A stretch of DNA of 58,693 nt from a virus: positions 1 to 58,693 of the IMG/VR virus record IMGVR_UViG_3300035698_012504; one strand, given 5' to 3'. The position numbers and the translations under genes are program-made. Position 1 is the stretch's first letter. Every line of letters starts with the position of its first letter. This document shows positions 2,330 to 33,087 of the stretch, in pieces. The notes under the pieces are model-generated. The model did not search any database. It worked only from the letters and a program-made list of their open reading frames with translations, and was not told the DNA's origin.

Positions 2330-2688
2330 GCGTCCAGCAAAGAGAAGAAGAACTATTCGATTTATTACAACGTTCAGGATTTAAGAAAAGAAGTCATCGC
2401 ACATCTATGATGGATTTTAGAGAAGAATCGTTTGATTTTGGTAACTATGTAGTAATTACTCTAAATGAAAATGGGTATATTGATGTGGAGATAGTAGATA
2501 AATTAGATATAGATAAATCGAGATACTACTATGTTAAAAGAATGGATAAAAGTAGTTTTAAAATGAGAATATATGCGAGTACTTATCCCGTGGCACCAGA
2601 ACGTATATTCGAATTTAAAATAGGAATAGATAAATTAGGAAAATTAATAAATACGTTTGATGTATTTAAACAAGGAGCAATATTATGA
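2326..2688 (+). CDS. tandem-array small protein family member (120 aa), tail FDVFKQGAIL
   Basis: Start moved from 2296 to ATG 2326 (ATGA overlap, AGGAGGAG upstream). Confidence 0.8.
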   Translation: MSVQQREEELFDLLQRSGFKKRSHRTSMMDFREESFDFGNYVVITLNENGYIDVEIVDKLDIDKSRYYYVKRMDKSSFKMRIYASTYPVAPERIFEFKIGIDKLGKLINTFDVFKQGAIL

Positions 2689-2906
2689 TATACATAGATA
2701 CTATGGATCGTTATATAATTAAGAATTATGATGAGTATGTTAGTAAAATACATACAGACATACTTACCACAATCCAACATAAACTTAATAAAGGTTATGA
2801 TGAGTGGACACACTATGAATACTTTCTTAGTCGTCATCTTATAAGATCTATTAATAGCTCGAACATATGTAGTTGAATATTTGCAAAACAAGGAGTTGTG
2901 GTATGA
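2685..2906 (+). pseudogene. tandem-array family member with an in-frame TGA at 2874-2876; the family tail IFAKQGVVV* continues in the same frame
   Basis: The ORF 2685-2876 lacks the tail. Ten codons further on in the same frame come QGVVV and the ATGA junction to the next gene (2903). Confidence 0.6.
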
Positions 2907-3361
2907 CTGAAAGAGGTATAATTAATGTATTAGATTCTTTACAATTCAACAACTCTAAAATATCTGGATCTTTTGCTGCCCCTATTAATGGAAGGGGATT
3001 TGCTCATATGAATCCAGGTCCTCCAACAGCACGATTTACATTCAGAGATAAAAATAGAATATCACTATCAACTACAATTTCAAAACCACAGATGATTGAT
3101 GTAGTATCAAGAAGAACCCATTTACTCGGAGGAATATCAAGACGTGGCCTAGTTGTAGAATGTTGGTTATACATACACTCTGATATAAATGATTATTATC
3201 TTTACTTTGTCGTACCATTTAATGAATCGACATTCACTGTTTATTTCACTCATAAATATAATGAGAAGGATAAAGATCATATTGATAGGGTTGGAACATT
3301 GTTTAGTAGATCAAAACCTATATTCATTCTAGATGTATTGAAGCGAGGAGTCGTGATATGA
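2903..3361 (+). CDS. tandem-array small protein family member (152 aa), tail LDVLKRGVVI
   Basis: Start moved from 2873 to ATG 2903 (CAAGGAG upstream, ATGA motif). Confidence 0.8.
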   Translation: MTERGIINVLDSLQFNNSKISGSFAAPINGRGFAHMNPGPPTARFTFRDKNRISLSTTISKPQMIDVVSRRTHLLGGISRRGLVVECWLYIHSDINDYYLYFVVPFNESTFTVYFTHKYNEKDKDHIDRVGTLFSRSKPIFILDVLKRGVVI

Positions 3362-3687
3362 TGTATACAGATGGATCAGATATGCTATATACATTTACAT
3401 TATCTGACGTAATAACTGGTGTAAAGGGTAGATCGTTTGATTTCATTATAAAAATAGATGAATACCCAGACTTTGTTAACAAAGGGCATACAAGATTAAA
3501 AAAAGTATCTCTTTATTTCTCAGTGTTTGGTAAAACATGTACTATTGATTGTATGTTAAACTCTAAATTCCCAAATATATTCTTATTTAATAATCTCCAT
3601 TATATTGTGTTAGTATATAACAATGGAGTTACTATGCCAACTTCAGTTAACACATTTAATATAATATCTCATGGTATCGTAATATGA
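3358..3687 (+). CDS. tandem-array small protein family member (109 aa), tail FNIISHGIVI
   Basis: ATGA overlaps at both ends. N-terminus MMYTDGSD. Confidence 0.85.
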   Translation: MMYTDGSDMLYTFTLSDVITGVKGRSFDFIIKIDEYPDFVNKGHTRLKKVSLYFSVFGKTCTIDCMLNSKFPNIFLFNNLHYIVLVYNNGVTMPTSVNTFNIISHGIVI

Positions 3688-3965
3688 TTGTAGATACTAC
3701 TGATATGAAAGAGCTAGGTATTGGTGTATGTATCTCAGAAGGGTTATGGGTAGATACATTTCACACCAAAGATATAATGCTAACTTTATACCGTTATATA
3801 GATGGAGGATCAATTACATCCATAACTAGAGATCAGGCTGAATTGGTCAGACATCATGGTAGAGTATATACATTTGATTTATTTGATACGCATATTATAT
3901 CATCTGCTCATCATAATGGATTAATTACTCCACTCAACATGATAAAGAGAGGGATTGTAATATGA
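3684..3965 (+). CDS. tandem-array small protein family member (93 aa), tail LNMIKRGIVI
   Basis: ATGA overlaps at both ends. N-terminus MIVDTTDM. Confidence 0.85.
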   Translation: MIVDTTDMKELGIGVCISEGLWVDTFHTKDIMLTLYRYIDGGSITSITRDQAELVRHHGRVYTFDLFDTHIISSAHHNGLITPLNMIKRGIVI

Positions 3966-4189
3966 TATTTGACAACGGCAACGAGTTATTATTTGAAGAT
4001 TGTCTACCAGTGTATGATGTGTATTTTAAAATATCTGATGTTTTTGGTATACCCCTCCGTATTAAATTTCCCCTTCCAAAAAATAAATATGGAAATCCCA
4101 AAGTTTTATATTACCTTCCGACGCTCCCTAGAATACATATCTCAATAATATTTAAGTTGATATATTATAGTAAAGGAATTAATATATGA
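3962..4189 (+). CDS. tandem-array family, MIFDN subfamily member (75 aa), tail LIYYSKGINI
   Basis: N-terminus MIFDNGNELLFEDC. Pro-rich centre. ATGA overlaps at both ends. Confidence 0.85.
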   Translation: MIFDNGNELLFEDCLPVYDVYFKISDVFGIPLRIKFPLPKNKYGNPKVLYYLPTLPRIHISIIFKLIYYSKGINI

Positions 4190-4488
4190 TATATGAAGAT
4201 ACTACAGATGCCCTAATGGGGGTGGAATATAATCCCGCAGAAGAATGTATTAAACTTAGCTATGGTAAGGAATCATTTTCACATGTAGATGTTGCTCTTT
4301 ATAGTGATGGTGGATTCGGATTTAGAATATCTAGATACCATTATATGAATATGTTGTCGTGTGTTACAGTAAAACGATCATACCGACAAAGGTTCGAATA
4401 TATATTTAAGACTGGATGCCATGAGCAATTTAGAAAGAAGCGATATGTTAATCTGATGGATATCTTCAACAGAGGAGTTCCTATATAG
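4186..4488 (+). CDS. tandem-array small protein family member (100 aa), tail MDIFNRGVPI
   Basis: ATGA overlap at the start. N-terminus MIYEDTTD. The TAG stop overlaps the next GTG start (TAGTG). Confidence 0.85.
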   Translation: MIYEDTTDALMGVEYNPAEECIKLSYGKESFSHVDVALYSDGGFGFRISRYHYMNMLSCVTVKRSYRQRFEYIFKTGCHEQFRKKRYVNLMDIFNRGVPI

Positions 4489-4712
4489 TGTATGTAGATG
4501 TAAAAGTTAATATGATGCTTAGTGCCGTAATGTACAAAGATGCTGGAGATTTTCGCGACTTGTGTGTTCATAATTATACTAGACCACTAGCCATTAAACC
4601 AATTAGATATAGTGGATATGGTAGGGATATGGGTTATACAGCATACATTAGAGGTTTTAGATTTAAGGACGTATTTAACCAAGTAATGAAGAGAGGAATA
4701 GTATGGAAATAG
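4488..4712 (+). CDS. tandem-array small protein family member (74 aa), tail FNQVMKRGIVWK
   Basis: GTG start overlaps the upstream TAG. The junction reads ATGG instead of ATGA, so the tail runs 2 codons past the thyX ATG. Confidence 0.7.
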   Translation: MYVDVKVNMMLSAVMYKDAGDFRDLCVHNYTRPLAIKPIRYSGYGRDMGYTAYIRGFRFKDVFNQVMKRGIVWK

Positions 4713-5485
4713 TAGAACCGAAAGTATTTTTAATAGCAGAAACTAAATTAGATAATGAGGGCCTTCTTGAATATCTCAAGGATCTTAACGTATTAGATTA
4801 TAGCTGGAGTGCCCCGTCTGATTCAGAGGCGCTATGTGAGATGATGGGAAGATTGTGTTATAGATCATTCAAGCCTGGTCTTAATCCCAATGTTACAAAA
4901 GTAAGGACCGGTAATGATGTATACTTAAAGAACATTATAAACACTGGGCATGGGTCAGTTTTAGAACATGCTAGTGTAAGTTTTATATTCAAAGACGTAT
5001 CTCGAGTATTCACGCATGAGCTTGTTCGACATAGATCAGGGGTAGCTATATCTCAAGAGTCTCTTAGATTCGTTAGGTTAGATAAGCTTAGTGCGTATGT
5101 CCCGATACAGATAGAAGAGAATGAAGAAGCAATGTCTTTGTTCATGGATACGTTTGATAAACTTGAAGAGGTGCAAAAACAACTCGCTGACATTTACGAT
5201 ATAGAGAACACTGATGACTTTGCTAGGAAGAAAGAATTAACCTCTGCATTCAGGAGAGTTGCCCCTATTGGATTAGCAACTACCATAGGGTGGACATGTA
5301 ATATGCGAGCACTAAGACACATAATCGAATTAAGAACTAGCCCACATGCAGAGATAGAACTTAGAGTAGTATTCGCAAAAGTATTTGATATAGTGAAAGA
5401 TAAATACCCTAATATATTTGGAGATTATAAAGTAGAGATGGTAGATGGTATACCGTGGGTGCATACTACGGAGGAGAAGATCTAA
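4703..5485 (+). CDS. thyX: flavin-dependent thymidylate synthase ThyX
   Basis: ThyX signature RHRSGVAISQESLR plus GHGSVLEH. AGAGAGGAA RBS lies inside the upstream tail codons. Confidence 0.9.
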   Translation: MEIVEPKVFLIAETKLDNEGLLEYLKDLNVLDYSWSAPSDSEALCEMMGRLCYRSFKPGLNPNVTKVRTGNDVYLKNIINTGHGSVLEHASVSFIFKDVSRVFTHELVRHRSGVAISQESLRFVRLDKLSAYVPIQIEENEEAMSLFMDTFDKLEEVQKQLADIYDIENTDDFARKKELTSAFRRVAPIGLATTIGWTCNMRALRHIIELRTSPHAEIELRVVFAKVFDIVKDKYPNIFGDYKVEMVDGIPWVHTTEEKI

Positions 5486-5501
5486 CATAAGGTAGTGAAT
5501 T

Positions 5502-5818
5502 ATGATATATGTTACTGGATGTATAAACTCAACGTTTTCTGAAAAGTTGATACATGAATCATTTAATAACATCTTAATATTATTAGACTTCATAGATGAT
5601 GATGATTATATGAATTATATCCTTGAGTATGGTATTAAGATTTATCCAATTTGTCCCATTCGATTTGAACTCTATTTAATTATAGACACTCCCCTCAGAT
5701 AGATATTCATTTCACACAAAGTCCAAAAATATCTGTAGTGTATACTAGTAAAGGTATACGTGTACCAGTCATTAGCTTTCATTTAATTGATATATTTAAG
5801 AGAGGGATAGCCATATAA
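5502..5818 (+). pseudogene. tandem-array family member interrupted by a frameshift (5502-5702 plus 5669-5818), tail IDIFKRGIAI
   Basis: The N-terminus MIYVTG is in one frame. The -1 frame is open from 5669 and ends with the family tail FKRGIAI* at 5816-5818. Confidence 0.55.
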
Positions 5819-5828
5819 AGGAGATAGT

Positions 5829-6077
5829 ATGCACATAGATGAAGACGGATTATACAATGAAGTTGCTCGTTATATTAGAACAAGGAATGATTTATCATTA
5901 GGACTTACTGTTATGAATATAACAAATGGTAAATTATTAATAGTAGTAGTTAATGACCCATCTAATAGAGGAACGCGGTTTAATCATGTAGATAATCTTA
6001 AAGAAATACTACCCAAAGTAATTCATTATTTCATATTAGTGTATATGGATGTTATGAAGGAAGGAATAAATATCTAA
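5829..6077 (+). CDS. tandem-array small protein family member (82 aa), tail MDVMKEGINI
   Basis: AAAGGAG RBS. The stop overlaps the next start as TAATG. Confidence 0.8.
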   Translation: MHIDEDGLYNEVARYIRTRNDLSLGLTVMNITNGKLLIVVVNDPSNRGTRFNHVDNLKEILPKVIHYFILVYMDVMKEGINI

Positions 6078-6451
6078 TGGATATGTATATGAGAACTCCT
6101 TTAATAAGACCATGTAGAGAAGAATATGATCATAGTTTTAGTACGAGAATATGTCACGCATGGATAAGAACTAAAACTAATTCATTTATTCACTTCCAAG
6201 TATCTGTTTCTCCAACTAACTCTACAGACAAATTCAAGCTGATGATGTTTTTGACAACAGATGATAAAATCAATGAAATAGGGACACGGGCATGGGTAGA
6301 AGAAAAACAAATATTAAGTATAGGAGCATCTAGGATGTTTGAATTATACTATGGGACCAGACTACAAAATCCTCTTATCATTCAGGGAATTTTTAAAAAA
6401 GGGGTATGTATCAATTCGAATGATTTTTTAAACGGAGGAATCGATATATGA
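6077..6451 (+). CDS. tandem-array small protein family member (124 aa), tail DFLNGGIDI
   Basis: TAATG overlap at the start and ATGA overlap at the end. Confidence 0.8.
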   Translation: MDMYMRTPLIRPCREEYDHSFSTRICHAWIRTKTNSFIHFQVSVSPTNSTDKFKLMMFLTTDDKINEIGTRAWVEEKQILSIGASRMFELYYGTRLQNPLIIQGIFKKGVCINSNDFLNGGIDI

Positions 6452-6810
6452 TATTTATATCTCCACCAGAAGATGGATTATATTCAGACTCAATTGTTAG
6501 GATAGAGCTTGTACCACACTCATCTAATCGCAGATATAAATTTATTGCTAATATTCCATCTAAACTAGATGATGTTTTATGTTCAATTTACGTCAGAAAA
6601 AAATCCCCATGGTGCCGAGACGATATAATAATAATATCATTCAAGCATCATAGATGTTATTTTCAAATATCTACTTTTAGTGGGTATGAACCAACTAAAG
6701 TATTTACTAAACCTAAAGTACAAACACTAATAACTAAACAGGGATGCAAATCAGAAGAAACTTATAGGGATATGGGTAGAATGTTTAGATGTGGAGGAAT
6801 CTCAATATGA
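6448..6810 (+). CDS. tandem-array small protein family member (120 aa), tail MFRCGGISI
   Basis: ATGA overlaps at both ends. ACGGAGGA upstream. Confidence 0.85.
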   Translation: MIFISPPEDGLYSDSIVRIELVPHSSNRRYKFIANIPSKLDDVLCSIYVRKKSPWCRDDIIIISFKHHRCYFQISTFSGYEPTKVFTKPKVQTLITKQGCKSEETYRDMGRMFRCGGISI

Positions 6811-7037
6811 TATTCGACAACGGTAATAAATTGTTATTTAAAGATTGCTCGTTAGTATATGACTATCTTAAATTATATAATTACATTCACCTTCACCCTC
6901 ACCTTCACCCTCACCTTCACCTTCACCCTCACCCTCACCCTCACCTTCGCCCTCACTCCCGCCTTCCCCTTCACCCTCACCTTCAACCCGAAAAATTATT
7001 TAACTGGGTGTATAATAAAGGAGGAGTTGTGATATGA
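6807..7037 (+). CDS. MIFDN subfamily member with a (His-Leu/His-Pro)n repeat core (76 aa), tail FNWVYNKGGVVI
   Basis: Start moved from 6789 to ATG 6807 (ATGA overlap). Near-identical paralogue at 8556-8786. Confidence 0.85.
   Translation: MIFDNGNKLLFKDCSLVYDYLKLYNYIHLHPHLHPHLHLHPHPHPHLRPHSRLPLHPHLQPEKLFNWVYNKGGVVI
6888..6983 (+). repeat. in-frame hexanucleotide repeat CACCYT (16 units, degenerating at the 3' end) encoding HLHPHLHP...
   Basis: Read directly: cac ctt cac cct cac ctt cac cct ... inside CDS 6807-7037. Confidence 0.9.
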
Positions 7038-7432
7038 TATTTGATACGACGTGTGAATATAACATGTATCAGTATGCATATGGAATGACTACACGTAAGA
7101 ATACAGTGACTAGAGAACATACTAGAATTACTATCCGTTCTCTTAGAGGTTATTGTTTCACATTCGAAAATCTAAGACATCCTCCGAAAGAATATGAAGG
7201 GCATTTTATATCGAGGGACGTTGAAGAGTTTTTAATAATTTATAAAGTAGATAGGATTACAGATGTTTATTACGATTTTATAAGAATAGGGAAAGTAGTG
7301 AGAGGGAAGAATCATTTAGTACGAAATGGAAAGAGAGAAATAATAATAACAACTGGTGTAAATCATACTACATCTGTTCCCAATGTATGTACAATTATAT
7401 TGGCGCTTTGTAGGAAAGGAACAGTCATATGA
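7034..7432 (+). CDS. tandem-array small protein family member (132 aa), tail ILALCRKGTVI
   Basis: ATGA overlaps at both ends. AAAGGAGGAG upstream. Confidence 0.85.
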   Translation: MIFDTTCEYNMYQYAYGMTTRKNTVTREHTRITIRSLRGYCFTFENLRHPPKEYEGHFISRDVEEFLIIYKVDRITDVYYDFIRIGKVVRGKNHLVRNGKREIIITTGVNHTTSVPNVCTIILALCRKGTVI

Positions 7433-7647
7433 TATTTGATAATGATAATAAAATGTTGATCGGAGATCCTACTAAAGCTTATAATACATATTGTTATATT
7501 AATACTCACACATGGGCAATTCAATATCTTAGTATGCATCTTCATACTAAATATCTTAATCTTACTCTTTTCCCACATTCTCGATTCCATCCTAGATTAG
7601 GAACCACATACAAATGGATAATTGAAAATAAAGGGGTCGTGATATGA
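7429..7647 (+). CDS. MIFDN subfamily member (72 aa), tail KWIIENKGVVI
   Basis: N-terminus MIFDNDNKMLIGD. His-rich centre. ATGA overlaps at both ends. Confidence 0.85.
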   Translation: MIFDNDNKMLIGDPTKAYNTYCYINTHTWAIQYLSMHLHTKYLNLTLFPHSRFHPRLGTTYKWIIENKGVVI

Positions 7648-8006
7648 TATTTGAATCGGTTAACATTGATTTGTTTTGGAGAGATGGATTACATTTGAGA
7701 ACATTAAAACATGGTTATACCCACTTCTTTAGAGAAACTTACGTTGATAAAATATTTATGCATGATACATTTATAGGAGATTTATTACTCGAATGTATCC
7801 TTGTCAACCATATAGATTATATAAGAATACGAATTCCAACATTTCCATATAGATCCATGACATATAAATTTGATATGGGTACCGAGATACTCATTCGATT
7901 TGGATCTGGTAATATATTCTGTACGCAGACAAGTAAAAAAGAAGAAAAAATTAAGTGGTTTCAATTTGGAACTTTAGATATCATGACTAGAGGGGTAGTT
8001 ATATGA
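7644..8006 (+). CDS. tandem-array small protein family member (120 aa), tail LDIMTRGVVI
   Basis: ATGA overlaps at both ends. The N-terminus MIFESV is shared with the member at 9960. Confidence 0.85.
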   Translation: MIFESVNIDLFWRDGLHLRTLKHGYTHFFRETYVDKIFMHDTFIGDLLLECILVNHIDYIRIRIPTFPYRSMTYKFDMGTEILIRFGSGNIFCTQTSKKEEKIKWFQFGTLDIMTRGVVI

Positions 8007-8251
8007 TTTATGTATATGATGCATCAGATTCATTACAAGGTATAAGATTAGATGATATTGAATTTTATATATCATCGGATGCAGTATGTGATATGTGTAA
8101 GAGAACAGATATTATGTGTGATAATCAATGTGCTATTTACTTTAATTCATGGCCATTTACAGAGGTGACCAAAGAGTTTTATGTTCCACCACGACCAACC
8201 ATCCCTCTTATGTATAATTGGGTGAGGAGACAGATAGGAGCTGTTGTATGA
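8003..8251 (+). CDS. tandem-array small protein family member (82 aa), tail YNWVRRQIGAVV
   Basis: ATGA overlaps at both ends. The NW tail resembles the MIFDN subfamily. Confidence 0.8.
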   Translation: MIYVYDASDSLQGIRLDDIEFYISSDAVCDMCKRTDIMCDNQCAIYFNSWPFTEVTKEFYVPPRPTIPLMYNWVRRQIGAVV

Positions 8252-8559
8252 TATATTTTACAAATGACACCCAGGGCGGGATGCAACAACATAATATAGA
8301 TGTCTACGTTAAAGATGTGTTACAGTTTTATAGACAAATCTATGATTTTGAACCTTACTATAATATACTAGATCCTATATTAAAGTATGCCCCAATATGT
8401 AGATATACTAGAGATGCTATATTATTTACACAAGAGGTATCCCCTGGTCTTTTTGGGGTTGTGATTAAAGAAGAACATCAAGAATTTCATGGAGTTAAAG
8501 TTACATTGTCTTTTATATGTGGATGGGTAATGCATCAACAACAAGGAGTAATTATATGA
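8248..8559 (+). CDS. tandem-array small protein family member (103 aa), tail VMHQQQGVII
   Basis: Start moved from 8218 to ATG 8248 (ATGA overlap, TAGGAG upstream). Confidence 0.8.
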   Translation: MIYFTNDTQGGMQQHNIDVYVKDVLQFYRQIYDFEPYYNILDPILKYAPICRYTRDAILFTQEVSPGLFGVVIKEEHQEFHGVKVTLSFICGWVMHQQQGVII

Positions 8560-8786
8560 TGTTTGATAACGGTAATAAATTGTTATTTAAAGATTGCTCG
8601 TTAGTATATGACTATCTTAAATTATATGATTACATTCACCTTCACCTTCACCTTCACCCTCACCTTCACCCTCACCTTCACCTTCTCCCTCACCTTCTCC
8701 CTCACCCCCGCCTTTCCCTTCACCCTCACCTTCAACCCGAAAAATTATTTAACTGGGTGTATAATAGAGGAGGAGTAATAATATAA
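8556..8786 (+). CDS. MIFDN subfamily member with a (His-Leu/His-Pro)n repeat core (76 aa), tail FNWVYNRGGVII
   Basis: Start moved from 8517 to ATG 8556 (ATGA overlap). Near-identical to 6807-7037. Confidence 0.85.
   Translation: MMFDNGNKLLFKDCSLVYDYLKLYDYIHLHLHLHPHLHPHLHLLPHLLPHPRLSLHPHLQPEKLFNWVYNRGGVII
8637..8732 (+). repeat. in-frame hexanucleotide repeat CACCYT (second copy)
   Basis: cac ctt cac ctt cac ctt cac cct ... Same length and register as 6888-6983. Confidence 0.9.
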
Positions 8787-9139
8787 TGTATGTAGATTGT
8801 ATGGATAAGGATATTTATCCAGAAGCCATTTAATTAGGATGTTCAAATACATATGATAAGAGTGGAGATACATGCGATCTAATGTTTTGCAACTTCAGTG
8901 AAAAACATCCATATGAATTTCTTATGAAATTAGGAATATCTGATATAAGAATAAAAATATCATATCCAGTTGGAGAGCGAAGAGTAGTTAATTTAATGAT
9001 ACTTGGACTAAAGAGCGGTGATGGAATATATGTAAAGTTCAGCGCACTGAAGACAATAACAATTATGTCTGAAGATGGGGAACGCAAATGGAATGATTAC
9101 ATGGGTTGGTTTTTACAGCAAGGTATATATATTAAATAG
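8786..9139 (+). pseudogene. tandem-array family member with an in-frame TAA at 8831-8833, tail WFLQQGIYIK
   Basis: The TAATG-coupled start gives MYVDCMDKDIYPEAI*. The same frame then continues without further stops into ORF 8882-9139. Total length is 118 codons, typical of the family. Confidence 0.55.
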
Positions 9140-9182
9140 TGACAGAAGGAATCTATTTCACACAACCAAAAAGGAGAGAAGT

Positions 9183-9692
9183 GTGAAGAATATTCATTGG
9201 CCCAAGGCGTGCATCTATATTTTTCTTTTACTGTTTTTATTACTTGCTAATGGGGAAATTGTAGGCGAGTTGAAAAGACCTATAATAGAATCCCAATTGA
9301 GTGCTGCGATAACAATTCCAGTTGTTATATTAGGTTTAAGTCAGAGCATATTCTTGGGATGGCTCATCGGGGCCATCGTCTGCTCATCTATAGGATTTAT
9401 GAATAATCCAATTGAACGTGTAATTGAAGAATTTGATAAAAAAGGAATACGAGCATATTATACAAATATGATATCTTTTTACGGGCTCATTATATTAACA
9501 CCATATAATTTATTTCTGTACTTTTGGCCAGTAGACGCAACTACTACGTTTATATTTGGAAACATTATGTTTTGGGCTGTATCTAGTATTATAATTTATA
9601 AGAATCTATGGGAGAACGTGAAGATTGACAACTTGGTTAAGGAGTGGTTCTTATGCAAGCCCTATCAGATATGTTTAAAATCTCAAAGCTAG
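9183..9692 (+). CDS. multi-pass membrane protein (169 aa) embedded in the array
   Basis: GTG start 9183 preceded by AAAAGGAGAG. Several hydrophobic segments (IYIFLLLFLLLA, ITIPVVILGLSQSIFLGWLIGAIV, GLIILTPYNLFLYFW, IMFWAVSSIIIY). ORF-track start 9075 rejected. Confidence 0.65.
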   Translation: MKNIHWPKACIYIFLLLFLLLANGEIVGELKRPIIESQLSAAITIPVVILGLSQSIFLGWLIGAIVCSSIGFMNNPIERVIEEFDKKGIRAYYTNMISFYGLIILTPYNLFLYFWPVDATTTFIFGNIMFWAVSSIIIYKNLWENVKIDNLVKEWFLCKPYQICLKSQS

Positions 9693-9949
9693 CAGTCGCT
9701 GTATTCATTCTAATAAATGTACTACATGTATTGATGTTTGTTGTAGCTATACCTATAGTAGTTATGTTGTACACTAAACTTAAGCTTATGGGAACTATCC
9801 CAGAGGATGGGATTATACCACTTATAGTATTATTTGGGGGTGGTGCTACTGTTGGCTTAGCATTTTCGTCTATGAAAAAGAAAATTTTAGAGTGTGTGGT
9901 ACCTGAATCTATGCATAATGAAAATAACCCGATAGTGGATGAACTATAA
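9653..9949 (+). CDS. small membrane protein (98 aa), two predicted TM helices
   Basis: ATG 9653 lies 8 nt after AAGGAG. Hydrophobic stretches LAVAVFILINVLHVLMFVVAIPIVVML and IIPLIVLFGGGATVGLAF. Confidence 0.65.
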   Translation: MQALSDMFKISKLAVAVFILINVLHVLMFVVAIPIVVMLYTKLKLMGTIPEDGIIPLIVLFGGGATVGLAFSSMKKKILECVVPESMHNENNPIVDEL

Positions 9950-9959
9950 GGATAAATCC

Positions 9960-10289
9960 ATGATATTTGAATCTGTTAAATCTATTAGCCCATTTAATAG
10001 TAGTAATATAACTAAATACCCATTTGGAGAATCTTTAGTAACATGTCAAGTAGATTATAATCTTAGAAAGAAGTTTAGGATAGGGATAACTGTAATAAAT
10101 CATAACACATATTATAAAGAAAAGGTAATTGTGATTTCCTATTTCCAAACAGATGGTAAGATTAGAAGTGCTGAAATAGGGCCTATACAAAAATCATCAT
10201 TTAGATCCTATTTTACCACTAAAATTATTACACATGGTGAAATCATTAATGCTTTTCTTAAACTGACGGGTAATGGAATAAGTATATGA
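9960..10289 (+). CDS. tandem-array small protein family member (109 aa), tail FLKLTGNGISI
   Basis: Start moved from 9939 to ATG 9960 (MIFESV, as in member 7644). ATGA overlap at the 3' end. Confidence 0.8.
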   Translation: MIFESVKSISPFNSSNITKYPFGESLVTCQVDYNLRKKFRIGITVINHNTYYKEKVIVISYFQTDGKIRSAEIGPIQKSSFRSYFTTKIITHGEIINAFLKLTGNGISI

Positions 10290-10611
10290 TAGTAGATGGG
10301 TTAATCATGGGATCCAACTCATCAGAAGTTAGACTTCAAAAAATGATAATATCTGGTAGCCTCAAACCAGGACAAGAATATATATCTATTATTGATCTTA
10401 CAAAAAAAGAGTAGTATTTTTCATTAGATTTTATGGTGCGCTGGTCTCAGGGCCATTTGATCCACATCAATCCTATATCTCGGTGAGCAGATACATAGAG
10501 ATCGTAGATGTAGACGGTGGATTTAAATTAAAATATATACGAGAAAAATTTAAAACACTATTGATTGGAAATCTATACATTATGATATCGAAACGAGGGA
10601 TTCTAATATAA
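10286..10611 (+). pseudogene. last array member, split at an A7 tract: 10286-10414 (42 codons) plus the -1 frame 10396-10611 ending in the family tail YIMISKRGILI
   Basis: ATGA-coupled start MIVDGL. The 0-frame stops at TAG 10412. The -1 frame is open from 10396 and carries the tail. The joined length is about 108 codons. Confidence 0.6.
10402..10408 (+). other. A AAA AAA slippery heptamer / homopolymer (candidate -1 frameshift or indel site)
   Basis: The 0-frame reads aca aaa aaa gag tag. Phasing fits X XXY YYZ, with a 0-frame stop 1 codon downstream. Confidence 0.5.
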
Positions 10612-10621: not shown

Positions 10622-11548
10622 ATGACAGGCCGTAATGTAGATATCGCGGAACTATTATCTAGAGTAAAATCAACACTCTCTACTAATGTAGATGAGACTA
10701 TTGACATTCCTACCATTGCTGAACCAGAACCACCGAGGGCAAAGAAGTCTACAATTTCTAGAATTAAAGATAGTGGGTTATCCATAATATTAAATCCAAA
10801 GAATATATTGGGTCGATATAGAGTTAGACCAAATCATAGATTGTCTGCTTTGGGAGTAGATGCCGAGGATATACCATCTGTTAATAAATTTGAAAGAATA
10901 GATAGTATTTTTAGAAATGATAATGAGCACGATAGAATTGATATTGAGCTACTTCAATTAAAGATGGATCTCGCAGCAGGTACAGTAAAAGCAGTTGAAC
11001 CCAAATCATCAGAGAAGGTGATATATTTATCCCCTACTGTCCCTAGTGAACTTGATAGCTCATTATACTCATATGATGATCAAGAAGATCAATTAATGGA
11101 ATTTTCAAAATACTATTGCGAATGCGCCATTGAGAATGGATGGAAGATATTATTAAATACATCAAGTGCTGATCCAATAATATGGAGAAAACTTAGAGAT
11201 ATGTTTGGAGATAATATAATCCTAGCAGATGGTAATAGTCTGCGTCAAAGTGTAGTAGATAATGGATGTAAAATATTATTCATTGCAGGAGGAAGTACAG
11301 GAGCAGTTAACGATATTGAACGGATATATGATGAATGGAATACATATCAGTGTGGAAGCACAATTATATATCATGCCGTTTCATTTGGCGGAGTATATGA
11401 TGTGAATGGCGAAATAATTTATTCTCTTGGAGGAGAAGGAGTAGAATATATAAGGGACATTACAGATTCTCGTCATAGATCTCCAATGAGTAGAGCTATT
11501 ATGAGTAAGTTTTTTGAATTTGTCACAGAAAGATACTCTAGGTTTTAG
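10622..11548 (+). CDS. hypothetical protein (308 aa)
   Basis: AAAGGAGAG RBS. Long ORF with no recognisable motif. Confidence 0.75.
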   Translation: MTGRNVDIAELLSRVKSTLSTNVDETIDIPTIAEPEPPRAKKSTISRIKDSGLSIILNPKNILGRYRVRPNHRLSALGVDAEDIPSVNKFERIDSIFRNDNEHDRIDIELLQLKMDLAAGTVKAVEPKSSEKVIYLSPTVPSELDSSLYSYDDQEDQLMEFSKYYCECAIENGWKILLNTSSADPIIWRKLRDMFGDNIILADGNSLRQSVVDNGCKILFIAGGSTGAVNDIERIYDEWNTYQCGSTIIYHAVSFGGVYDVNGEIIYSLGGEGVEYIRDITDSRHRSPMSRAIMSKFFEFVTERYSRF

Positions 11549-11560
11549 GAGAGAAACGCA

Positions 11561-12328
11561 ATGAGAAGGAAAGAAGTGTTTGTCATAGGGCTTGGAAATC
11601 CTGGGAACGCGGCCTCAATAGATTCTAGGCATAACGTTGGACAACTTGCCGTCGGTAGAGCACTTGCAATATATGGTGACTTACGTCCTCCAGGATCTGA
11701 GTCTCATAGGGACCGAATACAAAATGAAGATATTAAATTAAAATTGAGAAGAGCACCTATGTCAGTAAAAGATACAAGTATATTAAAATTTGGAGAGAAT
11801 CGAAGATCATATAAATATTACAGATCAACCGTGCTGCTCTATGGAATGACCATCAATTTTATAGAACCGGTTAATGTATATATGAACAGTTCTGGAAGAT
11901 TTATACGTGCGCTTAGATTAGATACAGATGAGTTTCTAGAAAATTTACTTATTATTCATGATGATATAGATTTACCAATTGGACGAGTGAGATTCCGTAC
12001 TGGGGGAGGGGACGGGGGACACAATGGAATAAAGAATATACGAGTAAATTTAGGAGATGATTTCTCTAGATTAAAAGTAGGAGTTGGAAGACCAACAGAT
12101 GATACAGTAGAACAATATCTAACTAGAGAAATGTCACTTAAACATAGGAAGCATATTAATAAGGTAATAGATACTATATTGAAAAAGTGTATGCTCGATT
12201 GGGCATTATATGGAACAGCGCATTGTTCTGTTAAGTACAACAAACTATTTGTTAATGGAAGTGGTAATGTTACTACATGGAAGAAACATCAAAAGGAGCT
12301 TGAAGAACTTGTGCGAAAAGAAGTCTGA
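11561..12328 (+). CDS. pth: peptidyl-tRNA hydrolase (255 aa, with an insertion and a C-terminal extension)
   Basis: Pth motifs VIGLGNPG..SRHNVG and HDDIDLPIGRVRFRTGGGDGGHNGIKNI. Confidence 0.85.
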   Translation: MRRKEVFVIGLGNPGNAASIDSRHNVGQLAVGRALAIYGDLRPPGSESHRDRIQNEDIKLKLRRAPMSVKDTSILKFGENRRSYKYYRSTVLLYGMTINFIEPVNVYMNSSGRFIRALRLDTDEFLENLLIIHDDIDLPIGRVRFRTGGGDGGHNGIKNIRVNLGDDFSRLKVGVGRPTDDTVEQYLTREMSLKHRKHINKVIDTILKKCMLDWALYGTAHCSVKYNKLFVNGSGNVTTWKKHQKELEELVRKEV

Positions 12329-12356
12329 AGACACACCAACTAATGCATTAAAAGAA

Positions 12357-12839
12357 ATGATTGAAAAACGCGGGGAGATATCTGGAATGGCCCAAAAGAG
12401 CTCCAATGTAATAAGAATAATGATGTCTCTATTGGCATCAAGAGCATTGGATGTTTCAAATTCTATGGCAGCCCTTCATGCAGTGAATGATTTGTATGAC
12501 GGCGACACAGAAGAAGCTATGAAAAGTAGACGGAATGAGTATGTGAAACAATATCTATTAGCAGTTAAGTCATTTAAATCATTAGAAAGAAAAATACATG
12601 ACGATGTTGCTCCAACATTTTTTGATAATGTTGCAGTGCTTTTTCCAGATGAAATATTCACGTTGTTCCGAGATGAGATGTTAGTATATAAGGAAAGAGA
12701 ATTAGGGTTACCTGTTGACCCATCAGAAGTCCCATCACTTGATGAAATGAGAGCATTCTTTAATGTATTTCCAGAAGAGTCATTACGAAGTAGTATAAAT
12801 GATAGTTTTAGTCCACTTACTGGATCAGATGAAGATTAA
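12357..12839 (+). CDS. hypothetical protein; start uncertain (12357 or 12387)
   Basis: ORF-track start 12210 would overlap pth by 119 nt. ATG 12387 has GGGGAG upstream. Confidence 0.6.
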   Translation: MIEKRGEISGMAQKSSNVIRIMMSLLASRALDVSNSMAALHAVNDLYDGDTEEAMKSRRNEYVKQYLLAVKSFKSLERKIHDDVAPTFFDNVAVLFPDEIFTLFRDEMLVYKERELGLPVDPSEVPSLDEMRAFFNVFPEESLRSSINDSFSPLTGSDED

Positions 12840-12854
12840 GAAGTAATTATTCGT

Positions 12855-12886
12855 GTCTGGGGCTCTCTAGTTAGAGGGTCCCAGAC
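12855..12886 (+). terminator. stem-loop (14 bp including 2 G-U pairs, 4-nt loop) after a stop codon
   Basis: GTCTGGGGCTCTCT agtt AGAGGGTCCCAGAC. No clear U-tract. Confidence 0.45.
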
Positions 12887-12900
12887 ATAATTAGCAGTAT

Positions 12901-12930
12901 CAACAATAAATATATTATTTTTTATTGTTG
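12901..12930 (+). terminator. perfect 10-bp inverted repeat CAACAATAAA/TTTATTGTTG with a 10-nt T-rich loop
   Basis: Read directly. AT-rich stem, so it may be a terminator or an operator. Confidence 0.35.
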
Positions 12931-12939
12931 AAAATATAA

Positions 12940-12949
12940 TGAGGACAAA
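12940..12949 (+). promoter_or_regulatory. TGAGGACAAA motif, site 1 (47 nt upstream of ATG 12996)
   Basis: Identical 10-mer at 37518, 43814 and 56005. Three of the four sites are in the rare intergenic gaps. Confidence 0.45.
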
Positions 12950-12995
12950 CTATTAGATGTATGATAGTTCGAAGTTACAATGTGAGGAGAGTAAA

Positions 12996-13595
12996 ATGAA
13001 AAGAATCTTAGCAAGTTTTCTTATTGTAATCGCCAGTATATTTATACTATCTGGTTGCAAAACGCCATCAGCGGTCCAAGATGCGAATCAGGTATCGATA
13101 ATGTATCTACATTTAATTCAAGAGGATGTAAATATTACAATTGATGCATTGTCTGAAGCAGCTAAAGAAGAATCTACAAGATATTATGATTTATGGTTAG
13201 AGGGTACTGAGAAATTAATTATCAGCAATTCAATGACTCCACAAGAAGCCATAGATGATTATAAAACAGCATTAGAGAGCGCAGCCACTCAGGTAGATGC
13301 CGCCAGTGACACGTATGACGATCTATCAAGAGAAATAAAGAGCGAAATTCAGAATAAAATAGTTAGAGCACAGAAATTAGCAGAGAAAATAGCAGAATAT
13401 CATCAAAGTGGTAGCATTTCGGCTGAAGATTTTGATGAAATTCTAAATGAAAGTGCAGAATTTGCAATTGAGATGGCAGAAGTAAGAAAAAATAGAGAAA
13501 AAGCCGTTGAATCTGCAAATGATGGCAAAGGTAGTGATTTATTGAATATTATTAAAAATAATGTGCTAAAAGGAATGGTTCCTAAAGAAAAATAG
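12996..13595 (+). CDS. lipoprotein (signal peptide with lipobox LSGC), helical and acidic
   Basis: MKRILASFLIVIASIFILSG|C. GAGGAGAG RBS. ORF-track start 12957 rejected. Confidence 0.75.
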   Translation: MKRILASFLIVIASIFILSGCKTPSAVQDANQVSIMYLHLIQEDVNITIDALSEAAKEESTRYYDLWLEGTEKLIISNSMTPQEAIDDYKTALESAATQVDAASDTYDDLSREIKSEIQNKIVRAQKLAEKIAEYHQSGSISAEDFDEILNESAEFAIEMAEVRKNREKAVESANDGKGSDLLNIIKNNVLKGMVPKEK

Positions 13596-18610: not shown

Positions 18611-19177
18611 ATGTCTAAAAAACTTTCATATGAATATGTAAAGCAATATTTTGAAGAAAATAGTTGCGAATTATTAGAAAGGGAATATGATAATTGTATG
18701 ATTAAAATGAAATATAAATGTTCTTGTGGAAGAATAAGTAAAATAAGTTTTAATAATTTTAAAAGTAAACATAGATGTAGTGATTGTGGTGGGAATGAAA
18801 AACATTCTTATGAATATATAAAACAATATTTTAAAGATAATAATTGTGAATTATTAGAAAAAGAATATATTAATAATAAAACTAACATGAAATATAAATG
18901 TGAATGTGAAATATTACTAGGATATTCTAGAAAAGATATTTTAGAGTATCTTAAGAAGGATCCAAATTTTGATAACTGGGTAAAGAATTCATCCAGCTGG
19001 CACATAGATCATATTATTCCAATAAAAGCATTTGTAGAAAATGAAATAACTAATCCGAAAATAATAAACGCTTTAGATAATTTAAGAATTATACACTGGA
19101 AAGAAAATTTACAAAAAGGTGCTACATTTAATAAGAATGAACTTCAAAGTTATGTGCAATCGAAAGGTATATTATGA
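18611..19177 (+). CDS. HNH homing-endonuclease-like protein, family copy 1 (188 aa, internally shortened)
   Basis: Two N-terminal YEY[VI]KQYF..CELLE..MKYKC.C modules. C-terminal HNH core WHIDHIIPIKAF...NLRIIHWKENLQKG. Confidence 0.75.
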   Translation: MSKKLSYEYVKQYFEENSCELLEREYDNCMIKMKYKCSCGRISKISFNNFKSKHRCSDCGGNEKHSYEYIKQYFKDNNCELLEKEYINNKTNMKYKCECEILLGYSRKDILEYLKKDPNFDNWVKNSSSWHIDHIIPIKAFVENEITNPKIINALDNLRIIHWKENLQKGATFNKNELQSYVQSKGIL

Positions 19178-19704
19178 TAAAATATGTCAAAGGTGATTTG
19201 TTCCTAACAGACTGCAATTCTATTTGCCATGGCGTGTCGTGCGCTGGTGTGATGGGAGTCGGGGTTGCTAAGAGAATGAAAGAAAGATACCCTGCTAATT
19301 TCAAATACTATCATAACCAATATAAATTTAAAAAATTGAAACCAGGTGAAGTATATATCTTTGCAGGATATCCTAGAAAAATTATAAATCTTACAACTCA
19401 AAGTCAATATGGTAGAAAGAGAATTAAGTATGCGACATTGGAAAATATTAAATCTTGTTTTTTGAAACTTAAATTATTACTACCAGAATATAATAAGGTG
19501 ATAGTTAAAAAGGGAAGCGGACCCATACAAAGTATTGCTCTTCCTAGAATAGGATCTGGATATGGCGGACTTAATTGGAAAGATGTTAAAAATCTTATAG
19601 ATACTCATCTCTCTGATACAGTACCCATAGTAGTATTTGAAGATTTTAAATATGGAATGAAGGCAGAAGAAGAAAATGAATTTCTGTCAAAGGAGCTGAA
19701 TTAA
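19174..19704 (+). CDS. macrodomain (ADP-ribose binding/hydrolase) protein
   Basis: VKGDLF...CHGVSCAGVMGVGVAKRMKERYP and IALPRIGSGYGGLNW, the typical macro-domain motifs. ATGA overlap with the upstream HNH. Confidence 0.65.
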   Translation: MIKYVKGDLFLTDCNSICHGVSCAGVMGVGVAKRMKERYPANFKYYHNQYKFKKLKPGEVYIFAGYPRKIINLTTQSQYGRKRIKYATLENIKSCFLKLKLLLPEYNKVIVKKGSGPIQSIALPRIGSGYGGLNWKDVKNLIDTHLSDTVPIVVFEDFKYGMKAEEENEFLSKELN

Positions 19705-20746: not shown

Positions 20747-21434
20747 ATGGGTAAAAAATTAACTTATGAATATGTTAAACAATACTTTAAAGATAATAAT
20801 TGTGAATTGTTAGAAGATGAATATATTAATTCTAGGACTAAAATGAAATATAAGTGTTCATGTGGGAATACATCTGAGATTAGATTTAGTGATTTTAAAA
20901 ACGGTCATAGATGTAATAAATGTGGGACTAAAAGGACCCGTGATAAATTAAGTCATAGTTATAAATATATAAAGCAATTATTTAAAGATCAGGGGTGTGA
21001 ATTATTAGAAAAAGATTATGTTGATAATCATACTAATATGAAATATATATGTTCTTGCGGTAACTCTGCAGAAATAACTTTTAACAGATTTCAATATGGA
21101 CATAGATGTATGAGATGTGGAAATGATAAGATATCAGGTCATAATCATCATAATTGGAACCCTGATAGAAATGTTGTTAGGAAGACAAAAGAGATACACA
21201 ACTTAAGTGCGTCATATAAAAATAACTACAGAAAGAAACATAACATCTAAAGACGTGCATATAGATCATATAATTCCGGTAAAAGCATTTGTGGAAAATG
21301 GGATATTTGATTTAGATATAATCAATGATGATAAAAATTTACAGTTGCTTTCCAGTAGGGAAAATTTAAGTAAAAGTGGTAAATATAATCAGGAAGATCT
21401 TGTAATATTTTTAAAGGAAAGGGTATCGGTATAA
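20747..21434 (+). pseudogene. HNH homing-endonuclease family copy 2, split by a frameshift (20747-21250 / 21207-21434) and internally deleted
   Basis: The N-terminal modules and NWNPDR are in one frame. The HNH core VHIDHIIPVKAF...NLQLLSSRENLSKSG is in the +1 frame. The linker present in copies 3 and 4 is missing. Confidence 0.6.
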
Positions 21435-24640: not shown

Positions 24641-24653
24641 AAAGGAAGATAGT

Positions 24654-26315: not shown

Positions 26316-26319
26316 TAAA

Positions 26320-31056: not shown

Positions 31057-31082
31057 AAAGGCTAGGGATAGAGAAATATTAA

Positions 31083-32628: not shown

Positions 32629-32629
32629 T

Positions 32630-33085: not shown

Positions 33086-33087
33086 AT

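Follow-up and report, generated by a model that had tools for sequence, protein, structure and literature searches.

A bacterial-type peptidyl-tRNA hydrolase with a basic insertion encoded by a T4-like phage

Organisation of the pth locus

The window, by which we mean the whole 58,693-nt stretch of viral DNA analysed here, carries at 11561..12328 on the + strand an ORF of 255 aa. We call it pth, since its product was identified as a bacterial-type peptidyl-tRNA hydrolase (Pth1) by PF01195, TIGR00447, a PDB match (8axp) and AF2/Foldseek. The position and length given in a preliminary description of this DNA, made from the sequence alone, proved exact. A strong Shine-Dalgarno sequence AGGAG, read from the sequence (11547..11551, +), lies 9 nt before the pth ATG, and the AGGAGAGAAA context is shared by pth and the gene upstream. 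The latter (10622..11548, +) encodes a 308-aa ORFan, ends 12 nt before pth and is probably co-transcribed with it. It had no Pfam, PHROG or PADLOC match and matched only itself among 5.8e9 proteins; its single-sequence AF2 model was unusable (pLDDT 39). On the other side, a 176-aa ORFan (12309..12839, +, as placed by gene calls in independent assemblies) overlaps the 3′ end of pth. It starts at TTG 12309, with an AAGGAG ribosome binding site 10 nt upstream, or at ATG 12267, and displayed no PHROG or PADLOC match. Taken together, Pfam, PHROG, PADLOC and homolog searches provided no functional hint from the neighbours of pth.

Folding of the region 12840-12956 with RNAfold (dG -38.7 kcal/mol) revealed a 16-bp G+C-rich terminator-like hairpin at 12853..12888 (+), followed by an A+T hairpin and a T-run at ~12900-12930. 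Because the T-run is not adjacent to it, the G+C-rich hairpin was not listed by a simple terminator scan. From this layout, pth is predicted to be expressed from a three-gene unit (308-aa ORFan, pth and 176-aa ORFan) ending at this strong hairpin. The unit sits between an early array of short genes and the replication module. The start of the next unit is marked by a TGAGGACAAA motif (12940..12949, +), present in four exact copies, all on the + strand, where 0.12 would be expected. Allowing one mismatch gave 7 occurrences against 5.3 expected, which is not significant. Similarly, a promoter consensus scan returned 16 promoter-like sites against 21.9 expected, without any excess, and the T4 late-promoter box TATAAATA showed no strand bias (14 on + and 12 on -).

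The pth product is a bacterial-type Pth1

The Pfam profile PF01195 aligned with residues 8-210 of the protein (profile positions 2-167 of 183; E 6e-34, 117.9 bits for a cut-off of 27). The NCBIfam equivalog TIGR00447 ‘pth’ was also matched, with 115.5 bits for a cut-off of 100, and the top PDB match by sequence was the Pth 8axp (4.5e-23). A Pth2 domain or fold was absent: PF01195 was the sole significant Pfam match, and the PDB fold matches were all Pth1 or CRS2.

Identity is low, about 31% with E. coli Pth and about 31-45% with the nearest cellular Pths. Despite this, the protein retains the family residue at each of the 17 columns that are invariant in an alignment of 36 family sequences. 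The catalytic motifs, noted as clear in the preliminary description, are all present and map onto E. coli N10, H20, N68, D93 and N114. The N-terminal motif GLGNPG...RHNVG (11588..11641, +; residues 10-15 and 23-27) falls on invariant columns and includes N13, H24 and N25, aligned with E. coli N10, H20 and N21. The core catalytic segment (11879..12028, +) comprises YMN109SSG, HD134DIDLP (HDDIDLP, residues 133-139), R144/R146 and GGGDGGH154N155G (GGGDGGHNG, residues 148-156). These correspond to E. coli M67/N68, D93, K103/K105 and H113/N114, respectively. The catalytic pair H24 and D134 (E. coli His20 and Asp93) occupies two invariant columns, and the substrate residues N13, N109, N155, M108 and H154 match Asn10, Asn68, Asn114, Met67 and His113. 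The basic clamp for the tRNA 5′-phosphate is kept conservatively, with R146, K172 and R144 in place of Lys105, Arg133 and Lys103, whereas E. coli K142 is replaced by Asp.

The AF2 model (pLDDT 82 overall and 85-95 in the core, pTM 0.81) predicts a single alpha/beta domain with a twisted mixed sheet, as in the Pth1 fold. A Foldseek search of the PDB with this model retrieved Pth1 structures (E 1.8e-16, target TM up to 0.85). The 48 best fold matches were active Pth1 enzymes, and the inactive paralog CRS2 was ranked 49th. Compared with E. coli Pth (2PTH/3VJR), the phage protein has the same fold (TM ~0.8-0.85), N-terminal start, catalytic His/Asp, three Asn, clamp and motifs. It differs by one extra residue between the first two motifs, the K142 replacement, a 36-aa basic insertion and a C-terminal extension of ~23 aa. 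On these sequence and model comparisons, the pth product is a genuine bacterial-type Pth1, whose catalytic machinery is fully intact and which is apparently active.

A basic insertion and a C-terminal extension

An insertion of roughly 40 aa after the first motif and a C-terminal extension had been pointed out in the preliminary description, and both were recovered by alignment. The insertion is located at about residues 39-82, between helix alpha1 and strand beta2 (11675..11806, +, from window-only alignment columns). Within it, other Pths lack an equivalent for 36 residues (about 40-59 and 65-80). It is basic (K+R 11 against D+E 7, pI 10.4) and was modelled at low confidence (pLDDT about 50). 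In the AF2 model, helix 23-38 leads into the insertion at its C-terminal end and carries the catalytic His24 at its N-terminal end. The insertion is thus distal to the active site. Three cellular Pths (P0134, P0157 and P0171) also bear insertions in this loop, but an exhaustive search of 1.84e9 representative proteins found the phage insertion in no homolog. No ortholog sharing it was found among 5.8e9 clustered proteins, the 1.84e9 representatives or IMG/VR. One elevated match, P0121, was rejected as an ortholog, being a tandem double Pth whose score was raised by summation.

The C-terminal extension (residues ~232-255; 12254..12325, +), delimited by alignment and AF2 secondary structure, reaches about 20-23 aa past the end of E. 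coli Pth, and its coding sequence covers both start candidates (12267 and 12309) of the downstream gene. Two short strands and a helix (240-254) are predicted in this region by AF2. Neither the insertion nor the C-terminal helix occurs in any other of the 1.84 billion representative proteins. They are peripheral, lineage-specific additions, not required to explain catalysis. The insertion may provide an extra contact with RNA or the ribosome, and this segment, modelled at low confidence, could also change specificity.

One could ask whether these additions signal a neofunctionalised Pth fold, acting either as a non-hydrolytic RNA binder or as a hydrolase redirected, for instance, to host initiator or aminoacyl-tRNA for translation shut-off. 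CRS2 (PDB 1RYB), a chloroplast group II intron splicing factor, is a homolog with the Pth1 fold that was recruited into a new genetic setting. It is detectable as a homolog of the phage protein, in a genome that has an intein and is rich in homing endonucleases. However, CRS2 is a much weaker match and ranks well below the active enzymes. The phage protein keeps all catalytic residues, the 17 invariant positions and, conservatively, the 5′-phosphate clamp, and passes the TIGR00447 equivalog cut-off; its insertion is distal to His24. Furthermore, no Rfam family, group I and II introns included, reached the gathering threshold in the window. A CRS2-like role was rejected since introns are absent from the Rfam search and the catalytic set is intact, and neofunctionalisation as a whole is, in our estimate, very improbable.

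pth is a resident phage gene

The genome is that of a novel, distant and large T4-like virulent myovirus of at least ~114 kb. Genes of the window include a T4-type clamp loader, a primase, ThyX, DHFR, a dCMP deaminase and a virion structural protein, together with an intein-containing RNR and many homing endonucleases. A DarG-like macrodomain (PADLOC DarG, 4.4e-32) is encoded 7 kb downstream of pth. The phage genes of the window are all on one strand and flank pth on both sides. The view in the preliminary description that the hydrolase is phage-encoded is borne out by these replication, nucleotide-metabolism and structural genes, which surround pth on a single strand.

Identical DNA containing the pth region was found in at least five independent assemblies (ENA, Logan and JGI) from several metagenomes. 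The window and the loci L001, L002 and L003 have the same sequence over 2 kb (100% identity), and no difference separates L001, L021 and L024 over 10-17 kb. As all copies of pth are identical, dN/dS is not computable. The GC3 of pth (0.238, for a genome mean of 0.239) and its codon usage, typical with rank 14 of 41, match those of the phage, which indicates a long-resident phage gene. The strong ribosome binding site of pth is in line with this. In a Pth tree the protein has no close cellular clade, and its distances are typical of the family. Searches of phage databases with the pth region gave no DNA or protein match even at E<=1.

Host contamination or a chimeric assembly, in which case pth would not be a phage gene at all, deserves attention because 21 INPHARED records with a Pth1 match look like host contamination. 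Here, the same arrangement recurs at 100% identity in the independent assemblies, and the same-strand order of phage genes is unbroken on both sides of pth. The canonical bacterial neighbours prs, rplY and ychF (in the order prs-rplY-pth-ychF) are all absent from the window. In addition, GC3 and codon usage equal the phage average and the closest cellular Pth is only ~31-45% identical. Contamination is effectively refuted by these results, and we give it next to no probability: pth is a resident phage gene. With no orthologs found in any other phage, the gene has no demonstrable importance for a lineage.

Phage Pth1 genes are rare

No genuine Pth1 was found in 50,697 deposited phage records. 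The 21 INPHARED records mentioned above, retrieved with E. coli Pth as a query, were set aside as apparent host contamination. The one checked, H1, was confirmed as such, being a segment of an Acinetobacter chromosome with lolB, four tRNA-Gln genes, prs, rplY and pth. Similarly, the Pth1 fold is absent from BFVD. IMG/VR contained about seven plausible phage cases (L006-L010, L014 and L015), in which pth usually adjoins tRNA genes, a tmRNA or an RNA ligase, as seen for the tRNA arrays of L009 and L010, the tmRNA of L015 and the RNA ligase of L008.

Known phage means of sustaining translation against host countermeasures include tRNAs, tmRNA, RNA-repair enzymes and the archaeal-type PTH2. Phage PTH genes have been read as ribosome-rescue and tRNA-recycling factors (Iyer et al. 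2021). Among them, the PTH2 of jumbo phages, such as ORF188 of Klebsiella phage RaK2, is presumed to hydrolyse peptidyl-tRNA for ribosome rescue and tRNA recycling. It would do the same biochemical job as the Pth1 described here with an unrelated, archaeo-eukaryotic fold. Phage Pth1 itself is rare but has been described before (Iyer et al. 2021). No new principle is involved: the enzyme family, the reaction it catalyses and the notion of a Pth encoded by a phage are established.

As in the present case, the Pth1 genes of metagenomic huge and jumbo phages (AXH72886.1 of Iyer et al. 2021, and the IMG/VR cases) are rare accessory translation genes of large dsDNA phages. In contrast to the 255-aa protein, their products are 162-214 aa long, without insertion or extension, and they are no closer to it than cellular Pths. 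Furthermore, several of them belong to tRNA, tmRNA or RNA-ligase modules, whereas the neighbours of pth in the window are ORFans. The 58.7-kb window and the flanking loci L024, L021 and L001 (~71 kb of phage) yielded no tRNA or tmRNA gene, nor any RNA-repair gene near pth. The modular setting of pth in other phages is thus missing here. The gene encodes the only phage Pth1 we found with a remodelled architecture, and apparently the only one located outside a tRNA module.

The upstream array of short genes

Upstream of the three-gene unit, the interval from 27 to 10414 holds 33 ORFs whose products are 42-260 aa long (median 100) and which share 17 overlaps of the ATGA type. The array extends at least 10 kb further upstream. 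A single gene, the 308-aa ORFan, separates it from pth, in agreement with the preliminary description. There, it was proposed that some 30 short coupled cistrons cause peptidyl-tRNA drop-off in the manner of the lambda bar minigenes, and that the phage supplies extra Pth for this reason. Lambda carries 2-codon bar minigenes which load peptidyl-tRNA, and depends on the host Pth. To our knowledge, lambda bar and E. coli pth(rap) constitute the only classical case of phage growth depending on Pth capacity. This case shows that a phage can be held back by its load of peptidyl-tRNA. The difference is that lambda causes the load through minigenes and uses the host enzyme, whereas the phage studied here supplies the enzyme and shows no minigene enrichment.

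Indeed, 33 elements composed of a Shine-Dalgarno sequence, ATG, at most 7 codons and a stop were observed in the window, fewer than the 44.9 +/- 6.7 obtained by simulation. They were not concentrated in the array (0.66/kb, compared to 0.54/kb elsewhere), and the sole intergenic one is at 37489. In T4-like phages, such coupled arrays of early genes are the rule. With genuine Pth1 in 0 of 50,697 records, an array of this kind does not predict pth, and adjacency at one gene's distance is weak evidence in a genome all on one strand.

The array itself is real, and two published observations lend the proposal some plausibility. The bar minigenes become toxic once Pth runs short (PMC2490762), and peptidyl-tRNA drop-off occurs mainly during early elongation (PMC10192219), which implies that more initiations per residue would modestly raise the load. 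However, minigene toxicity acts at 3-8 codons and falls with ORF length within that range (PMC2490762), far from the 42-260 codons of the array. In other phages, the location of Pth1 genes next to a tRNA array, a tmRNA or an RNA ligase points to translation maintenance or a response to tRNA damage rather than to a load of short ORFs. While the intact, phage-encoded Pth1 of the preliminary description stands, the array as a bar-like burden is not supported, and we consider it highly unlikely as the reason for the presence of pth.

Possible roles of the phage enzyme

The family of the protein, its conserved residues, its fold, its residence in a phage and the layout of the operon were established above, while its enzymatic activity, expression timing and biological role are inferred. 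The reading that we hold to be probable is that of a catalytically competent Pth1, resident in a T4-like phage, which sustains phage translation by recycling peptidyl-tRNA. In this scheme, His24 would be activated by Asp134, as in cellular Pth1. Asn13, Asn109 and Asn155 would position the peptidyl-CCA end, and Arg146 and Lys172 would clamp the tRNA 5′-phosphate. The enzyme would then hydrolyse the ester bond of ribosome-dissociated peptidyl-tRNA or of N-blocked aminoacyl-tRNA. The freed tRNA would rejoin the chargeable pool and phage protein synthesis would be sustained when host Pth is limiting. This could occur after host shut-off, or when host responses deplete or modify tRNAs and thereby raise stalling and drop-off. 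Keeping tRNA pools free, already suggested in the preliminary description, can naturally be inferred for a phage Pth, and countering a host response that raises peptidyl-tRNA, also envisaged there, is plausible. If active, the protein would be an easily assayable example of tRNA-recycling capacity supplied by a virus. It would permit testing whether the build-up of peptidyl-tRNA or N-acyl-aminoacyl-tRNA is a battleground between phage and host.

A more specialised function is conceivable, in which the enzyme serves dedicated counter-defence as an ‘orphan detoxifier’. It would reverse toxin products such as the N-acetylated aminoacyl-tRNA made by the GNAT toxins TacT, AtaT or ItaT, or clear a surge of peptidyl-tRNA caused by immune nucleases that deplete specific tRNAs, with the basic insertion tuning it to the substrate. 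Aminoacyl-tRNA acetylated by TacT is known to be hydrolysed by Pth, which abolishes the toxicity of TacT when overexpressed (PMC4942678). Hungry codons raise peptidyl-tRNA build-up, which Pth counteracts (PMC2490762), and T4-like phages are proven to use orphan antitoxin-like enzymes for counter-defence (PMC11825919). The DarG-like macrodomain in the same phage and the singleton distribution of pth among fast-evolving ORFans, as is typical of accessory anti-defence genes, point in the same direction. On the other hand, PADLOC gave no match for pth or its immediate neighbours, we found no paper in which GNAT aminoacyl-tRNA acetyltransferase toxins defend against phage, and nothing in the sequence separates this role from general tRNA recycling. 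We regard counter-defence as possible though rather unlikely, and general recycling of peptidyl-tRNA is the reading we retain.

More doubtful still is the specific form in which the insertion-bearing Pth1 is a dedicated anti-defence enzyme, that is, a housekeeping hydrolase captured and remodelled by a T4-like phage to undo tRNA-directed immunity (N-acylation of aminoacyl-tRNA by GNAT-type toxins, or a peptidyl-tRNA surge after immune cleavage of tRNA). Were it true, Pth would represent a new class of phage counter-defence, and toxins acetylating aminoacyl-tRNA would act in phage defence. Orphan counter-defence enzymes such as AdfN and DarG-like proteins share with this scheme a phage-borne cellular enzyme which reverses a toxin product, and differ from it in that Pth is a housekeeping enzyme and not an antitoxin.

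Identification of the pth product as a Pth1

The pth ORF occupies exactly 11561..12328 on the + strand, as the preliminary description had stated, encodes 255 aa and is preceded by a strong ribosome-binding site (AGGAG, 9 nt 5′ of the ATG). Its assignment as a peptidyl-tRNA hydrolase (Pth) was confirmed by profile scores. Pfam Pept_tRNA_hydro (PF01195, cut-off 27 bits) matched residues 8–210 with 117.9 bits (E 6e-34), and the stricter NCBIfam equivalog model ‘pth’ (TIGR00447, cut-off 100 bits) gave 115.5 bits. The closest solved structures by sequence were all bacterial Pth (8axp, 4.5e-23; E. coli 2pth, 2.2e-19), CRS2, a catalytically inactive plant paralog, being last among these matches (~1e-14). 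Overall identity to the family is ~31%, with 17/17 invariant columns of a 36-sequence family alignment kept.

Residues were mapped on a MAFFT alignment of the window protein, E. coli Pth (mature numbering) and nine database homologs. The catalytic residues were all found, E. coli N10, H20, N21, M67, N68, D93, H113 and N114 corresponding to N13, H24, N25, M108, N109, D134, H154 and N155, respectively. The basic clamp that binds tRNA is likewise intact (K103/K105/R133 to R144/R146/K172). Neofunctionalisation, either to a CRS2-like role or to an altered specificity, is therefore unlikely, since these residues are conserved and no introns were found in the window.

Insertion and C-terminal extension

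The two additions to the Pth core noticed earlier could be delimited by alignment, which bears out the preliminary description. In the segment joining helix alpha1 to the following strand, 36 residues (about 40–59 and 65–80) have no counterpart, and the C-terminal tail is ~20–23 residues longer than that of E. coli Pth. An AlphaFold2 model, obtained with the homolog alignment as input, reached pLDDT 82 and pTM 0.81, with 85–95 in the Pth core and ~50 in the insertion. Foldseek against the PDB returned Pth1 structures on top (E ~2e-16, target TM 0.77–0.85) and CRS2 at rank 49. In the model, helix 23–38 carries the catalytic His24 at its N-terminal end and the insertion departs from its C-terminal end, which would place the insertion ~20 Å away from the active centre. 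The C-terminal extension is modelled as two short strands and a helix (240–254). The insertion is basic (11 K/R versus 7 D/E, pI 10.4; whole protein pI 9.8). A few cellular Pths (P0134, P0157 and P0171) hold unrelated insertions at the same loop, which is thus a permissive site.

Rarity of Pth1 in phages

A word-indexed search of 5.8e9 proteins and an exhaustive phmmer search of 1.84e9 representatives retrieved no close relative, only the window protein itself. Below this self-match lies a cloud of cellular Pths of 160–220 aa, 31–45% identical to the window protein. The sole higher-scoring homolog is a metagenomic protein of 566 aa (P0121) in which two tandem Pth1 domains with a repeated linker follow an unrelated N-terminal region; it is either a true duplicated fusion or the product of misassembly.

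With the window protein as query, no match was obtained in 50,697 deposited phage records even at E≤1. E. coli Pth gave 21 matches there, resembling host DNA. The best of them, ‘Acinetobacter phage MD-2021a’ (CAKLQH020000007.1 8689-17252), carries lolB, four tRNA-Gln, prs, rplY, pth and panD. Some phage-labelled records of this collection, this one for example, hold bacterial chromosome, and counts of ‘phage pth’ drawn from it are inflated because of such contamination. In BFVD, no viral protein of Pth1 fold was found at E≤1e-3.

Of 2.9 million IMG/VR contigs in a profile-guided scan, 14 contained a Pth1, some of them (L017 and L018) plainly host-like. Seven others (L006–L010, L014 and L015) are low in GC and 25–545 kb long; among them, L007 encodes a jumbo-phage RNAP beta and L010 and L015 encode homing endonucleases. 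In four large contigs, pth sits within translation-support modules: an RNA ligase lies nearby in L008 (1037-2089; 313 kb, 21% GC), six and seven tRNA genes surround it in L009 (545 kb) and L010 (94 kb), respectively, and a tmRNA gene follows ~540 nt 3′ of it in L015 (5896-7313; 416 kb). The window pth, in contrast to the copies amid the tRNA arrays of L009 and L010, has no tRNA module. The Pth1 proteins of the seven low-GC IMG/VR contigs (162–214 aa) also lack the insertion and the extension, both present in the window protein, and none is nearer to it than cellular Pths.

PTH2 occurs across jumbo phages and bacterial-type Pth1 in one metagenomic jumbo phage; both were read as ribosome-rescue and tRNA-recycling factors (Iyer et al. 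2021, PMC7824862). RaK2 encodes Pth2 (PMC3622015). Taken together, the database, IMG/VR and literature surveys indicate that Pth1 is already known in phages, though rare. The window gene is an architecturally distinctive example and, with its unique architecture and atypical context, represents an independent acquisition.

The phage genome

The window holds ~100 tightly packed ORFs, all on the + strand, at 29–35% GC. Gene annotation identified, all on this strand, a T4-type clamp loader (21435-22388), a primase (22388-23380), ThyX (4703-5485), DHFR, dCMP deaminase, a FEN-like exonuclease, a PDDEXK nuclease, a virion structural protein (45845-46570) and a class II (B12-dependent) RNR split by an intein whose sequence includes a homing endonuclease domain of LAGLIDADG type (40573-43803). 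The clamp loader is closest to gp44 of T4-like myoviruses (36% with Ralstonia RsoM2USA; 31–34% with cyanomyophages, pelagimyophages and Caulobacter Cr30), and at the nucleotide level no deposited phage matches the window. The window belongs to a novel, deeply branching T4-like phage infecting a bacterium.

Independent assemblies from ENA, Logan and JGI contain the same DNA at 100% identity. The ENA contig (74.8 kb) starts ~57 kb 5′ of the window and ends 6.3 kb past pth; since the window continues 46 kb beyond this end, the genome is at least ~114 kb. The GC3 of pth, 0.238, matches the mean for the genome (0.239 ± 0.045), and by codon usage the gene is a typical one (rank 14/41). Contamination as the origin of pth is excluded by the identical DNA in independent assemblies and by its phage-typical GC3 and codon usage. 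The gene is a long-resident one of the phage, neither a contaminant nor a recent capture.

Neighbourhood of pth and the short-ORF array

Upstream of pth lies an array (27-10414) of 33 ORFs of 42–260 aa (median 100), with 17 ATGA overlaps; the ENA contig extends it by at least 10 kb, with ORFans throughout. A poorly coding stretch of ~200 nt separates it from a 308-aa ORFan (10622-11548, +) ending 12 nt before pth. A 176-aa ORFan (+), starting at 12309 or 12267, overlaps the 3′ end of pth and is followed by a 16-bp G+C-rich hairpin (12853-12888, +). These two ORFans and pth look like one transcription unit. Neither ORFan has a Pfam, PHROG or PADLOC match or a homolog beyond this virus, and for the 308-aa protein a structure model built from the single sequence was too poor for use (pLDDT 39). 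No tRNA or tmRNA gene was found in the window or in ~12 kb of additional flanks, nor any Rfam family at gathering threshold in the window.

The preliminary description proposed that the phage Pth offsets peptidyl-tRNA drop-off from the short cistrons, by analogy with the lambda bar minigenes, whose link to Pth is sound and established. Minigene inhibition is inverse to ORF length in the range of 3–8 codons (PMC2490762), whereas array ORFs have 42–260 codons. We further counted minigene-like elements, defined as SD-ATG-(≤7 sense codons)-stop on the coding strand, against second-order Markov simulations. The window holds 33 (44.9 ± 6.7 simulated), at similar density in the array (0.66 per kb) and outside (0.54 per kb), and just one is intergenic, distant from pth. 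The bar logic does not transfer to the array. Moreover, coupled early-gene arrays are to our knowledge universal in T4-like phages without pth, so that the array is not a specific explanation for the gene. Many short cistrons would nevertheless raise the drop-off load somewhat, since drop-off happens early in every ORF (PMC10192219). The enzyme identity and a general tRNA-pool rationale stand, and the short-ORF/minigene part of the proposal does not.

Within the array (2123-8786, +), paralogous ORFs of 68–89 aa start at 2123, 3962, 6789, 7429 and 8517. This family, a direct repeat (6805-7027 versus 8554-8776, 223 bp, 94% identity) and recurring ORF lengths of 120 and 82 aa indicate recent tandem duplication.

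Possible roles of the phage enzyme

An active Pth1 would recycle peptidyl-tRNA and N-blocked aminoacyl-tRNA inside the infected cell and so sustain phage translation. The analyses establish the family, the fold, the intact catalytic and tRNA-binding residues, the strong ribosome-binding site and residence in the phage; we infer activity, expression timing and benefit, and lean, with some reserve, towards this role. Counter-defence would be a more specific role. Aminoacyl-tRNA acetylated by TacT is hydrolysed by Pth, and TacT is no longer toxic when Pth is overexpressed (PMC4942678); bacterial immunity often targets tRNAs (PMC12409363). The same phage encodes a 176-aa Macro-domain protein (19174-19704, +; PADLOC DarG E 4.4e-32, macrodomain part only; Pfam Macro 3e-09), likely an orphan DarG-like antitoxin that may act in anti-DarTG counter-defence as in other phages; orphan antitoxin-like enzymes (AdfN and other DarG-like proteins) are shown counter-defence in T4-like phages (PMC11825919). 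However, we found no paper on GNAT aminoacyl-tRNA acetyltransferases defending against phage. A counter-defence role for the phage Pth seems to us rather unlikely, and that it is a dedicated anti-defence factor, which would raise its interest, is doubtful indeed. General recycling remains our preferred reading.

Other features of the genome

The first gene past the pth unit (12957-13595, +) probably starts at an internal Met (MKRILASFLIVIASIFILSGC...); the sequence from there, judged by eye, is a signal peptide of lipoprotein type bearing a lipobox Cys, so that the product is a putative phage lipoprotein. The exact 10-mer TGAGGACAAA occurs four times (12940, 37518, 43814 and 56005, all + strand; 0.12 expected). 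Three of the four copies fall in rare intergenic gaps directly 5′ of genes, so that it may serve as a promoter or regulatory box specific to this phage; at one mismatch, its count in the window was not significant.

Mobile endonucleases are very numerous (18611-19177, 20747-21434, 52200-53009, 54473-55291, 40033-40554, 46574-48415 and 57179-58075, all +), with at least five HNH-type paralogs (phrog_559), a further HNH_5 gene, a DUF7487 homing endonuclease of 613 aa and a LEM-3-like GIY-YIG protein. One paralog seems to have been split into ORFs 20747-21250 and 21207-21434.

A stand-alone LigD_N 3′-phosphoesterase domain protein of 148 aa (51494-51940, +; E 6e-15), for which no ligase partner was seen in the window, is predicted to be a nucleic-acid end-healing enzyme. 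Between the dCMP deaminase and an HNH endonuclease lies a 161-aa GNAT acetyltransferase (39548-40033, +; Acetyltransf_1 1e-08) with no PADLOC match. A large glycan/modification cluster (~24650-38480, 48960-49862 and 53730-54476, +) includes four GT2 glycosyltransferases (one a 553-aa double-domain protein), two Sulfotransfer_4, two putative rhamnosyltransferases, an ATP-grasp (Ter-type), a hexapeptide transferase, methyltransferases and a GDPD phosphodiesterase, and may be linked to DNA or virion glycan modification. Finally, a 354-aa protein (56158-57222, +) is a full-length match (E 1.3e-61) to the archaeal actin-like family ‘Volactin’ (Pfam PF25216). An actin homolog is unusual in a T4-like phage; further contigs from this virus also carry the gene.
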